DNA from: Escherichia coli O127:H6 str. E2348/69
GTDB lineage: Bacteria; Pseudomonadota; Gammaproteobacteria; Enterobacterales; Enterobacteriaceae
Assembly: GCF_000026545.1 (NCBI RefSeq)
Contig: NC_011601.1
Direction: 5' to 3' (one strand)
Length of the DNA stretch: 64,000 nucleotides
Shown here: piece after piece, positions 57,434 to 61,668 of the stretch
Layout of the letters: every line of letters starts with the position of its first letter
Numbering within the stretch: the first letter of the stretch is position 1
The notes under the pieces: model-generated
Databases searched by the model: none
Told to the model about the DNA's origin: nothing
Seen by the model: only the letters and a program-made list of their open reading frames with translations
Position numbers and translations under genes: made by a program

Positions 57434-58366
57434 ATGGACAACGACAAAATTGATCAACACAGCGACGAAATTGAAGTTGAGAGCGAAGAAAAAGAGCGCG
57501 GTAAAAAAATAGAAATAGATGAAGACCGACTCCCCTCCCGGGCGATGGCAATTCATGAGCATATCCGCCAGGATGGTGAAAAAGAGCTGGAACGCGACGC
57601 AATGGCGCTACTGTGGTCAGCCATTGCGGCGGGCCTGTCGATGGGCGCTTCGCTACTGGCAAAAGGGATATTTCATGTCGAACTGGAAGGCGTGCCGGGC
57701 AGCTTCTTGCTGGAGAATCTCGGTTATACCTTTGGTTTTATTATCGTCATAATGGCCCGCCAGCAATTATTTACCGAAAACACCGTAACTGCGGTACTAC
57801 CCGTCATGCAAAAACCGACAATGAGCAACGTCGGCTTACTTATGCGGTTATGGGGCATCGTGCTGCTGGGTAATATTCTCGGGACAGGTATTGCTGCGTG
57901 GGCATTTGAATATATGCCTATCTTCAATGAAGAAACTCGCGATGCATTTGTCAAAATCGGCATGGATGTGATGAAGAACACCCCCAGCGAGATGTTTGCC
58001 AACGCGATCATTTCCGGCTGGCTGATCGCCACTATGGTATGGATGTTTCCTGCAGCGGGTGCGGCAAAGATTGTGGTGATTATATTGATGACCTGGCTTA
58101 TTGCCCTGGGTGACACCACTCACATCGTTGTCGGTTCTGTTGAAATCCTCTATCTGGTGTTTAACGGTACGCTGCACTGGAGCGATTTCATCTGGCCCTT
58201 CGCACTACCTACTTTAGCGGGGAACATCTGCGGCGGCACCTTTATCTTCGCGTTAATGAGTCATGCACAGATCCGTAACGACATGAGCAACAAGCGCAAA
58301 GCAGAAGCACGCCAAAAAGCAGAACGTGCGGAAAACATTAAGAAAAATGATAAAAACCCGGCATAA
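57434..58366 (+). CDS. yfdC: Formate/nitrite transporter-family inner-membrane protein
   Basis: 310-aa polytopic ORF. Confidence 0.88.
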   Translation: MDNDKIDQHSDEIEVESEEKERGKKIEIDEDRLPSRAMAIHEHIRQDGEKELERDAMALLWSAIAAGLSMGASLLAKGIFHVELEGVPGSFLLENLGYTFGFIIVIMARQQLFTENTVTAVLPVMQKPTMSNVGLLMRLWGIVLLGNILGTGIAAWAFEYMPIFNEETRDAFVKIGMDVMKNTPSEMFANAIISGWLIATMVWMFPAAGAAKIVVIILMTWLIALGDTTHIVVGSVEILYLVFNGTLHWSDFIWPFALPTLAGNICGGTFIFALMSHAQIRNDMSNKRKAEARQKAERAENIKKNDKNPA

Positions 58367-58441
58367 ATGGTGAGGGTTTAAGCAATCGAGCGGCAGCGTA
58401 CTTACCCCGCAGTCCATTAGCGGGTATACTCATGCCGCATT

Positions 58442-58516
58442 GTCCTCTTAGTTAAATGGATATAACGAGCCCCTCCTAAGGGCTAATTGCAGGTTCGATT
58501 CCTGCAGGGGACACCA
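58442..58516 (+). tRNA. argW: tRNA-Arg (anticodon CCU)
   Basis: gtcctcttagttaaatggatataacgagcccctCCTaagggctaattgcaggttcgattcctgcaggggacacca: cloverleaf with CCU anticodon loop, T-arm GGTTCGATTCC, no encoded CCA. Confidence 0.9.
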
Positions 58517-58677
58517 TTTATCAGTTCGCTCCCATCCGTACCAGTCCGCAAAATCCCCTGAATATCAAGCCTTACGTATATTCACGGTTCGTCATGGTTC
58601 GCGTCAGATCGTTGACAGCCGCACTCCATGACGGGTAAAAAGTGGATAAAATAATTTTACCCACCGGATTTTTACCC

Positions 58678-59835
58678 ATGCTCACCGTTAAGCAGATTGA
58701 AGCAGCAAAGCCGAAAGAAAAACCATACCGCCTACTCGATGGTAATGGCCTGTACCTTTATGTCCCTGTATCAGGGAAAAAGGTATGGCAGCTTCGCTAC
58801 AAGATTGACGGTAAGGAGAAAATCCTGACTGTCGGAAAATATCCGCTTATGACTTTGCAGGAAGCAAGGGATAAGGCATGGACTGCGAGGAAAGACATCT
58901 CGGTTGGCATCGATCCGGTAAAGGCGAAAAAGGCTTCGTCTAACAACAATTCATTTAGTGCGATTTACAAGGAATGGTACGAGCACAAGAAGCAAGTCTG
59001 GTCAGTAGGCTATGCAACTGAACTTGCCAAAATGTTTGATGACGACATTTTACCCATCATCGGCGGTCTTGAGATTCAGGATATTGAGCCGATGCAACTG
59101 CTGGAAGTAATCCGCAGATTTGAAGATCGCGGTGCAATGGAGCGAGCCAACAAAGCCCGCAGAAGATGCGGCGAGGTTTTTCGTTACGCTATTGTCACCG
59201 GAAGGGCTAAATATAACCCGGCACCTGACCTTGCAGACGCCATGAAAGGATACCGCAAGAAGAACTTCCCGTTCCTTCCAGCAGACCAGATGCCTGCATT
59301 CAACAAAGCACTGGCAACATTTTCAGGAAGTATCGTATCGCTCATTGCGACAAAAGTTTTACGTTATACAGCCCTAAGAACGAAAGAGCTTCGTTCCATG
59401 CTATGGAAGAACGTCGATTTTGAAAACAGGATTATCACCATCGACGCCAGTGTGATGAAGGGACGCAAAATTCATGTGGTCCCGATGTCAGACCAGGTGG
59501 TTGAACTTCTCACTACGCTAAGCTCAATCACCAAACCAGTCTCAGAGTTTGTTTTTGCCGGGCGCAACGATAAGAAGAAGCCAATCTGCGAGAACGCGGT
59601 ATTGCTTGTGATCAAACAAATCGGCTATGAAGGTCTGGAAAGCGGTCACGGATTCAGGCATGAATTCAGCACGATTATGAACGAGCACGAATGGCCTGCT
59701 GACGCTATTGAAGTGCAACTGGCACATGCCAACGGCGGATCTGTGCGTGGGATTTACAACCATGCTCAGTATCTCGATAAACGCAGAGAAATGATGCAGT
59801 GGTGGGCGGACTGGCTTGATGAAAAGGTAGGGTGA
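58678..59835 (+). mobile_element. intS: P4-family tyrosine integrase (phage integrase)
   Basis: N-terminal arm-binding domain and C-terminal catalytic domain (R...HGFRH...Y), directly downstream of tRNA-Arg; start set at MLTVKQIEAA (ORF track begins 36 nt upstream). Confidence 0.9.
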
Positions 59836-60065
59836 TCGACCTTAACAACTATCGAATAGCACAAAGACTTGCGGGCCAGTGCAAGGCGTTCTGTGTCTCA
59901 GTTTTGTCTAAGTGTTCTACTAAAACATAGTAAAATCGGTAACGGCTGGAAATCATTCAATACTCGCACTATCGAAAGTTCGCCAGCCAGCCGCAGCACG
60001 TTCTTGCATACGACGTGGCTGCGGCTTCCAACATTAGACAAATAACTCTTTAAATTGCTTTTAAA

Positions 60066-60281
60066 TTATTTCGTTTGAATGCCAGTAACAGGAAATCGTT
60101 TATATAGGGTTGATAGCCCAACGTTATAGATACGTGCAACATAACGCCGCGATTTCCCTGCCGCTATGAGCGCTCCCATCTGTTGCCACTGCTCGTCGCT
60201 AAACTTCGGTCTACGCCCACCAATCCGGCCTTTGGATCTGGCAATAGCCAAACCAGCTAAAGTTCCGGGATGACAGGCCAG
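60066..60281 (-). pseudogene. Remnant of a Gin/Pin/Hin-family serine DNA invertase: C-terminal HTH domain only
   Basis: ...GRIGGRRPKFSDEQWQQMGALIAAGKSRRYVARIYNVGLSTLYKRF matches the invertase C-terminus; frame opens only from 60281 and the ORF-track Met is a TTG; no catalytic N-terminal domain. Confidence 0.75.
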
Positions 60282-60625
60282 TTAACATGCTCAGGGTCGG
60301 TTGTTACATCAACAGCCTTAACCTGATTCTTATATAAAAGCCACGCCGAAAGTTTAGCTCTGTTGGCATCGCTGATTTCACCCAGCATCAGCTCTGTGCG
60401 CCAGTCGAGCATAATTGCATCAGCGGCGGACAGTAATCGCTGTCGCTCATTTTCAGCAGCCTGGATGAGTTGTTCATGAGTCGGTGGGGGATTAATAATT
60501 TCCATAGCCTCACTTCTGGTGATTGGCACAAGCCCTTCTTTGATAAAAGCATCCTGTGTGCCATACGCATCGTAGGCATATACGACGTTATTTTCATCTT
60601 TGTAATACTTCATCATTGTTATCAT
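60257..60625 (-). CDS. Phage tail-fibre assembly (chaperone) protein, short form
   Basis: 122-aa ORF with the conserved Tfa C-terminal motif (...[20 protein letters not shown]); directly downstream of the tail-fibre gene. Confidence 0.75.
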
Positions 60626-61668
60626 TTTTTATCCACCTCTGCCCAGGTAACATCTGACACAGTTCCTGAAAACTGCCGCACGACATAGGTCGCACCGGCA
60701 GGAACCATGAATGCGATAGTTGCTCTGTGCCCTGCAAGATTTGTTGTCTGATTGCCGCGAAAATTAGCCAAATTACCATCCATATTAACGTCGGCGCTCA
60801 GAAATGAACTACCGTCAGACATCACCGCATTGACGCTTACAAATATGGCGAAAGACTGGCTGTTGGTGTATACGACACCGAGATTTCTAGATTTCATTCC
60901 GCATTGACCAAACAACCCTTTCATATCTGAGTAGTTTTGTGATGCAGCAAGTGATGATGCGGCAACACCAGATTCTGTTGATGTTCTGGAATCAGATACG
61001 CGGATAATTCCCTTGTTTGTAGTGGTTGCATCATTAGTCTTGCCTTGCAGAGCTACAATATCCGCATAATTCATCGCTGCCGCTTTTGCTGTTGCAGCAA
61101 GCGTTTCAGATTCGGATACCCTTGATGATGTAAGTTGAACAATTCCTTTCTGTGTCGTAGTTGAATCCTGAGTTTTGTTTTGCAAAGATTTTATGTCCGT
61201 ATAGTTTTGCGCGACAGCATTAGCTGTGGCTGCAATATCCTCTGCACCCGATACCCGCGATGACGTTAACCGGACTAAACCCACCTGTGTTGTTGATGCG
61301 TTTTTAATACCAAGGTTTTCGAGAGCCGTTTGCACAGTGCCATCCGATTTGATATCGCCAAACGGATTCTTGCGGCTCAGGTATTCAACAGCAAACCCCG
61401 ATCCCAGCAATTCAACAAAACCGGGCAGATCACCATTATCAAGCACATCCCGTTGCGTTTTATCACTTACAAACTGGGCCAGAGCTGCAGCAATAAAGCT
61501 GGCCTGCCGAATAACCTTATTGACTTGCGCACTGGATGCTTTCCCTGCTGTAAATCCGGATATAAGCGCAGGCAACGCTTCCCATTCCTCCTGCGACATA
61601 ACATTGGCATTTCGATCAGTTGCAAACGCTTTAAAGTCATTTTTCGCCATCAGAGTAATACTCCCCAT
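60622..61668 (-). CDS. Phage side tail-fibre protein with three tandem fibre repeats
   Basis: 348-aa ORF; three ~43-aa repeats ([16 protein letters not shown]...[15 protein letters not shown]) characteristic of tail-fibre proteins. Confidence 0.85.

Follow-up and report, generated by a model that had tools for sequence, protein, structure and literature searches.

The window, by which is meant the whole stretch of 64,000 nucleotides of DNA that was analysed, is 100% identical to Escherichia coli O127:H6 strain E2348/69 between positions 59800 and 61700. The genes fadL, mlaA and yfdC lie to the left of a prophage, whose end is marked by a tRNA-Arg gene (argW) followed by the plus-strand gene for the integrase IntS. 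A minus-strand series comes next, consisting of an invertase fragment, an ORF of 122 codons, a tail-fibre ORF of 348 codons, a DUF2612 gene, a baseplate J gene and more baseplate genes. The features on which the analysis depends are the following.

58442-58513, plus strand: tRNA-Arg gene (argW), with an Rfam tRNA score of 63.4 bits and a RefSeq annotation; marks the prophage end.
58642-59835, plus strand: prophage integrase IntS, identified by Pfam Phage_integrase and by RefSeq; marks the prophage end.
59913-60065, no strand assigned: non-coding stretch 3' of the invertase remnant, which travels with the cassette described below and overlaps an element of about 115 nt at 59905-60028.
60066-60263, minus strand: serine-invertase remnant of about 65 residues, an HTH DNA-binding domain (Pfam HTH_7).
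60257-60625, minus strand: tfa, tail-fibre assembly protein, 122 aa from M1, with an ATG start and a TAG stop; N-module at residues ~5-48, C-module (Caudo_TAP) at residues ~45-121.
60258-60265, minus strand: deletion junction at an 8-bp microhomology, GAACTTTA, placed by three-way alignment.
60622-61668, minus strand: tail-fibre ORF of 348 aa, whose likely start at M7 (61650) gives 342 aa, as in SEN34 and FJ_Ec_21.
60625-60897, minus strand: fibre-tip domain, the last ~90 aa, with the signature SRxxxxxYTNSxxxPxxV...NG...FxVPxGATY...WxEx.
61300-61325, minus strand: crossover-like site of the Din-invertase type, coding strand CTCTCGAAAACC-TT-GGTATTAAAAAC, encoding LENLGIKN.

The prophage at argW is about 43 kb long in the RefSeq record, which was read past the end of the window. 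It carries regulatory, replication, lysis, terminase, head, sheath/tube, tape-measure and baseplate genes with almost no pseudogenes, and it appears to be complete. Its tail module is syntenic with that of Salmonella phage SEN34 at about 75% DNA identity, and as in SEN34 a lambda-like early region (N, CI/Cro/CII, nin genes and Q) is combined with a contractile tail; genes for tRNA-Asn and tRNA-Thr are also carried. A literature search on the E2348/69 argW prophage found no directly useful description of it.

The ORF at 60257-60625 had attracted attention in a preliminary description of this DNA as an unusually short gene of 122 codons with clustered Met codons. The ORF is real: on the minus strand it runs from an ATG to a TAG and begins MITMMKYY, with Met codons at positions 1, 4 and 5. 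Its assignment to the tail-fibre assembly proteins is supported by several comparisons. Residues 45-121 match positions 56-131 of the 131-position Pfam profile Caudo_TAP (PF02413) with a score of 67.9 bits (E=1.3e-18), which is above the curated gathering score of 22.1; residues 3-121 match PHROG 188, “tail fiber assembly protein” (E=5e-28); residues 50-120 match the sequence of Mu U (PDB 5YVQ_B, E=9e-4); and the RefSeq product, WP_000632058.1, bears the name “tail fiber assembly protein”. The gene is co-oriented with the fibre ORF of 342 or 348 aa and lies directly downstream of it, an arrangement also found in SEN34, MSW-3, 23AR0998, S1 and the locus L013. The dN/dS ratio relative to the SEN34 homologue is 0.07, and the gene is under strong purifying selection.

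The start codon of tfa is ambiguous, since the Shine-Dalgarno spacing and the overlap with the fibre gene favour M1 while conservation favours M5. A GAGG sequence lies 10 nt upstream of M1, and the ATG of M1 overlaps the stop codon of the upstream fibre ORF (ATGA, 60622-60625), whereas M5 is about 22 nt from that GAGG and has no Shine-Dalgarno sequence of its own. If translation instead begins at the conserved MKYY (M5, 60613), the true product is a protein of 118 aa, the MITM codons are an untranslated spacer and the Met cluster is an artefact of ORF calling. The MKY start of SEN34, MSW-3 and most diverged relatives, together with the annotation by PGAP of the near-identical 23AR0998 copy as 118 aa, speaks for this shorter product, but an in-frame MITM or MREM extension is kept in many close relatives, and we regard the shorter product as possible though somewhat doubtful. 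The MITM extension was also considered as a fusion point and was rejected in that role, because it is in frame in close relatives, because the Shine-Dalgarno spacing fits M1 and because the homology to the P2-like cassette continues across it without a break.

Although the C-terminal part of the protein is what the Pfam model recognizes, the residues that precede it are also conserved. Exhaustive searching of 1.84 billion cluster representatives with phmmer returned 605 matches, among which about 55 clusters (at 50% identity, 107-135 aa) start with the same motif of about 45 residues, MKYYKDxxNxVYAYExDGSQDxFIKxGLxPITExEA..NPPPT. The preliminary description was right that the C-terminus is conserved and that the N-terminus falls outside the usual model, but the N-terminus is not the unrelated sequence that it had seemed, because it is a conserved module. 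The C-modules found behind MKYY N-modules vary, and one of them was scored as PF16778 (Phage_tail_APC); conversely, C-modules 65-81% identical to that of Tfa occur with other, longer N-modules in proteins of 144-197 aa. In these sequence combinations the two modules recombine independently across relatives.

An AlphaFold2 model built from an alignment of 63 sequences has a pLDDT of 93.3. Its three short strands (residues 2-5, 11-14 and 29-31) are followed by a helix (33-40) and then by a helical hairpin formed by residues 46-76 and 82-100. The predicted architecture is accordingly one of two modules, a small beta/alpha N-module and a C-terminal helical hairpin. Among predicted viral structures the best match to the model is a phage tail assembly chaperone of 124 aa (TM 0.73/0.70, E=1e-6), and the next matches are also tail-fibre assembly proteins; comparison of the model with solved structures gave nothing specific, including no fold-level match to TfaMu (5YVQ). 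A passage of PMC9608196 that cites the Mu Tfa structure describes Tfa proteins as modular, fibre binding being the task of a variable N-domain and trimerisation that of a conserved C-domain.

The gene downstream of tfa is the remnant of a serine invertase of which only residues 123-188 are left, the catalytic domain being absent. In tblastn comparisons of the remnant with Gin, the Cartapus invertase and the 23AR0998 recombinase the alignment begins at residue 123 of these proteins, and the remnant has the same amino acid sequence (100% identity) as the C-terminal end of the intact recombinase of ETEC H10407, a protein of 188 aa. About 75 complete E. coli genomes have an intact recombinase gene that is 99-100% identical to the remnant in its 3' part. 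The H10407 invertase belongs to a dusA prophage and adjoins a canonical invertible segment, in the order fibre, tfa, inverted tfa' and Sv', invertase.

The position at which tfa was joined to the remnant can be read from a three-way alignment of the tfa end of 23AR0998 (CCCGGAACTTTAAACC), the E2348/69 window (CCCGGAACTTTAGCTGG) and the H10407 invertase (GAGCGAACTTTAGCTGG). The octamer GAACTTTA is common to the 3' end of tfa (GAA CTT TAA) and to codons 121-124 of the invertase (CGA ACT TTA GCT), and the alignment therefore places the fusion within this octamer, at 60258-60265. The deletion joined the tfa stop codon to invertase codon 123, and in doing so it retained all tfa codons, changed the stop from TAA to TAG and left tfa and the remnant overlapping by 7 nt. 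A rearrangement near tfa, as the preliminary description had supposed, has therefore indeed occurred, with its junction on the stop codon. At the E2348/69 locus the opposite strand carries neither a tfa nor a tip ORF between tfa and the remnant. The identical junction is found in the dusA-type prophage of strain EcPF16, and it follows that the deletion happened once and that the cassette moved later.

The preliminary description had offered two readings of the gene: a truncated or chimeric product of the rearrangement that removed the invertase, or a genuine short variant. The protein is short relative to Mu U/U' (175-177 aa) and to the Tfa proteins of the FJ_Ec_21 and H10407 prophages (197-202 aa), and to this extent its description as unusually short holds; relative to its own family it does not, since the Pfam Caudo_TAP model itself has 131 positions and, among the best 150 representatives at 50% identity, most are 105-145 aa long and only 6 reach 175 aa or more. 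A word-indexed search found 530 relatives, and all of the best 120 (from E. coli, Salmonella and Citrobacter) are 117-133 aa long. More than 100 relatives of 117-124 aa are colinear with Tfa over its full length. Fifteen records from phage genomes cover at least 80% of the protein, including those of SEN34, the Edwardsiella phages MSW-3, PEi21 and PVN06 (39-42% identity), the Escherichia phages Cartapus and vB_EcoM-613R3 (37% identity), Proteus phage RS51pmB and HK225. The Tfa of SEN34, a myovirus that is induced by mitomycin C and forms plaques (PMC5261728), is 117 aa long, 68.6% identical and colinear with the E2348/69 protein from MKYY (M5) to the last residue.

Close full-length homologues of about 120 aa thus occur in functional phages, which is the observation that the preliminary description had itself named as decisive against truncation and which upholds its other suggestion, that of a genuine short variant. 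A truncated or chimeric remnant, in which a tfa of 175-200 aa was cut by this or another rearrangement and the rest fused to an unrelated Met-rich N-terminus, would be in keeping with the deletion junction at the 3' end of the gene, the mosaic character of the fibre-tfa cassette, the restriction of the Caudo_TAP match to residues 45-121 and the 175-177 aa of the canonical Mu proteins. It is nevertheless contradicted by the colinear Tfa of a plaque-forming phage, and the junction lies on the stop codon, with every tfa codon present and a C-terminus (...NWPVIPEL) identical to that of the 23AR0998 P2-like prophage copy, where no deletion has occurred and the gene stands before an intact recombinase gene. 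The 45 N-terminal residues are conserved in about 55 diverged clusters as well as in isolated phages, the ORF is under strong purifying selection, and the cassette junction in the fibre gene is about 700 bp upstream of the tfa start, neither in the gene nor beside it. Alignment with SEN34 and the other relatives reveals no missing segment with respect to functional members, and we consider truncation to be extremely improbable. Tfa is complete and ordinary for the widespread class of naturally short Tfa proteins of 117-124 aa to which it belongs, and its shortness is native.

The second boundary of interest lies in the fibre gene, where a junction of the kind that the preliminary description had proposed to look for is present, at codons ~115-120 (61309-61324) and not at the 3' end of the gene. 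The identity of 99.6% to FJ_Ec_21, a sister SEN34-like prophage, stops at 61309, and the identity of 97% to the P2-like cassette of 23AR0998 starts at 61324, so that the fibre switches between CTCTCGAAAACCTTGG and TATTAAAAAC, a point encoding LENLG/IKN. This mosaic breakpoint falls at the core of the crossover-like site at 61300-61325, whose outer and inner half-sites score 11/12 and 9/12 against the consensus and which aligns with the bona fide-looking 26-bp crossover sites of FJ_Ec_21, Cartapus and Mu. In P2-like, SEN34-like and Cartapus fibres alike, the change from constant to variable sequence takes place at the same core, ACCTTGGT. A generic search for the crossover-site pattern gave 3 matches against 3.4 expected per window, which is not above chance, and what speaks for the site is its position on the mosaic junction together with its alignment with the sites of other phages.

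A partner crossover site was not found between 59800 and 62000, and a search for repeats round the locus turned up neither a partner in inverted orientation nor meaningful direct repeats. With its partner site, its catalytic domain and the inverted tip and tfa all missing, the inversion switch is dead. What is left between the two boundaries is a cassette of fibre tip and tfa (60258-61324), copies of which, about 97% identical, occur in P2-like and lambdoid prophage contexts; the dusA prophage of EcPF16 has 97% identity over 59913-61100. A near-full-length copy of tfa is present in only 8 of the 5426 complete E. coli genomes, 3 of the 8 being E2348/69-type O127:H6 assemblies, and the gene is 99.5-100% identical across six genomes and 98.3% identical in two more.

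Two of the prophages used in these comparisons have features of their own. In the P2-like locus of 23AR0998 (L005, 883-4356) the short tfa is followed by an intact recombinase of 183 aa, and its surroundings also contain a second recombinase gene, two DinI-like genes and a hemerythrin gene; neither an inverted alternative segment nor a partner site was found at this locus. The FJ_Ec_21 prophage (L007, 2953-4759) lies beside bioA-ybhB with only the 3' end of its integrase gene left; the N-terminus of its fibre is 99.6% identical to that of E2348/69, and it has an unrelated tip, a Tfa of 202 aa and a fragment of an inverted second tfa. The FJ_Ec_21 locus is another decayed invertible segment.

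The fibre ORF into which the cassette leads is uninterrupted, and it is a mosaic of an N-terminal baseplate-attachment part, Phage_fiber_2 repeats (Pfam) and a C-terminal tip. The FJ_Ec_21 fibre shares 92.8% identity with residues 7-131, and an annotated fibre in strain S1 shares 95% with residues 162-348; the tip ends colinearly with the SEN34 and MSW-3 fibres. In the RefSeq/PGAP annotation only the first 190 codons are recorded, as a pseudogene “missing C-terminus”, and 60625-61081 is left unannotated; this call is probably an artefact of annotating a mosaic gene.

In each of the six loci that were compared (E2348/69, SEN34, MSW-3 and the metagenomic or genomic loci L011, L012 and L013), the gene directly before that of a short MKYY-type Tfa ends in the tip signature; the last three of these loci have Tfa proteins of only 42-43% identity. 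The fibre tips of FJ_Ec_21, H10407 and Cartapus, which are associated with other Tfa N-modules, have no significant match to the E2348/69 tip, and Mu S has only a weak, off-register one. Because the N-module and the tip signature co-occur in the six loci, the tip domain is presumed to be the binding partner of the N-module.

It could be supposed that tfa is intact and yet a silent passenger, the prophage or its fibre being defective and the protein having no current role in E2348/69. The partial fibre in the PGAP annotation, the destroyed invertase, a cassette that is rare and was gained by recombination, and a literature in which no induction data on the argW prophage were found are all compatible with such a state. 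It is, however, difficult to reconcile with a fibre ORF that is continuous over 342-348 codons and colinear at its tip with SEN34 and MSW-3, with a prophage of about 43 kb that has a complete gene set and hardly any pseudogenes, or with the near-identity of tfa in the eight genomes that carry it, and we judge it unlikely.

The explanation that best accounts for the locus, and in which we place high confidence, is that tfa encodes a complete, functional-looking short Tfa of two modules which belongs to a portable cassette and which was left unchanged by a microhomology deletion. The gene would be translated just after the fibre gene of a SEN34-like myovirus prophage at argW and would probably be coupled to it. 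The N-module, about 45 residues with three beta-strands and a short helix (MKYYKDxxNxVYAYDxxGxQDxFIKxGLxPIT), would recognize the cognate fibre tip of about 90 residues, and the Caudo_TAP helical hairpin (~46-100, with its WPxxP tail) would, in analogy to Mu Tfa and Pam3 gp25, make the fibre fold and trimerise. Fibre tip and tfa make up a single portable cassette whose left boundary is the core of the crossover-type site in the fibre gene. On the right side, a deletion at the 8-bp microhomology fused the tfa stop to codon 123 of a Gin/Pin-type invertase, removing the catalytic domain and any alternative fibre segment and leaving the Tfa protein unaltered. The ORF, its family, its colinearity with phage homologues over the full length, the purifying selection, the two junctions and the joint occurrence of N-module and tip are shown by the data, and binding, chaperone mechanism and expression are inferred. 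Counting against the explanation are the ambiguity of the tfa start, the pseudogene flag of PGAP (though the fibre ORF is continuous), the rarity of the exact cassette (8 of the 5426 complete E. coli genomes) and the pairing of N-module and tip, which is suggested by sequence signatures in six loci.

Comparison with known systems separates what is shared by the E2348/69 locus from what has been lost. SEN34 gp28 (YP_009191634.1, 117 aa, Brunovirus) occupies the same site after the fibre, in the order baseplate J, DUF2612, fibre, tfa, and its fibre has a homologous tip signature and a different middle part. Unlike the E2348/69 gene, gp28 starts at MKY without an MITM extension and is followed by an O-acetyltransferase and an integrase, where E2348/69 has the invertase remnant. 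Mu U/U' (TfaMu, 5YVQ chain B) belong to the same Pfam family, and their C-terminal ~70 residues align with Tfa at 34-39% identity. Both Mu and E2348/69 have the fibre-tfa order, an association with a Gin-type invertase and a variable N-domain joined to a conserved C-domain. The Mu N-domain, however, has about 100 residues, is without sequence kinship to the E2348/69 N-module and binds a different fibre tip, and Mu keeps an intact invertible G segment, which E2348/69 does not.

Cartapus has paired short Tfa proteins, gp21 (131 aa, 37-44% identical to Tfa) and gp20 (139 aa), and a cassette of tip and tfa lies there between crossover sites in a P2-like invertible segment beside a Gin homologue. 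Its N-modules and fibre tips differ from those of E2348/69, and its inversion system is intact, with two sites and an invertase of 188 aa. In the invertible tail-fibre segments of the Din family (Mu G/Gin and the H10407 dusA prophage), fibre, tfa and invertase are co-directional and a crossover-like site stands at the boundary between constant and variable fibre sequence, as in E2348/69. An inverted alternative tip and tfa is present in H10407 and Cartapus but not in E2348/69, and in contrast to the Din-family systems the E2348/69 locus has neither a catalytic domain nor a partner site nor such an inverted alternative.

A broader reading is a serious possibility to which we give a little less than even credence: that the MKYY N-module and the “YTNS...VPxGATY...WxE” tip form a minimal, self-contained recognition pair, distributed as one cassette across unrelated tail types (in SEN34-like, P2-like, dusA-type and lambdoid contexts), combined with at least two kinds of C-module (Caudo_TAP and Phage_tail_APC) and exchanged at crossover cores. 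If this sequence-based reading is correct, Din crossover sites would serve as points of cassette exchange between phages as well as sites of inversion, and the N-module and tip would constitute an unusually compact chaperone-plus-tip unit for host-range engineering. Independently of it, the pairing of a small N-module with one tip might be of modest use in engineering the host range of phages or tailocins, and the locus offers a base-level account of an invertible fibre segment that was frozen by a microhomology deletion with its chaperone gene unharmed. Tfa itself is ordinary biology and already annotated, and the value of the analysis is mostly one of annotation hygiene, in that a short Tfa is not to be taken as a truncation.

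A final observation concerns the element at 59905-60028, which is the right-hand homology common to the dusA-type and argW prophage ends. An Rfam scan of 58300-61000 reported the tRNA-Arg alone and assigned no family to this element. It is unannotated and about 85-120 nt long, and 5242 of the 5426 complete E. coli genomes contain a match; the copy number has a median of 2 and reaches 8. Its place in K-12 is between ecpE and ykgJ, and prophages carry it immediately downstream of DinI-like genes.
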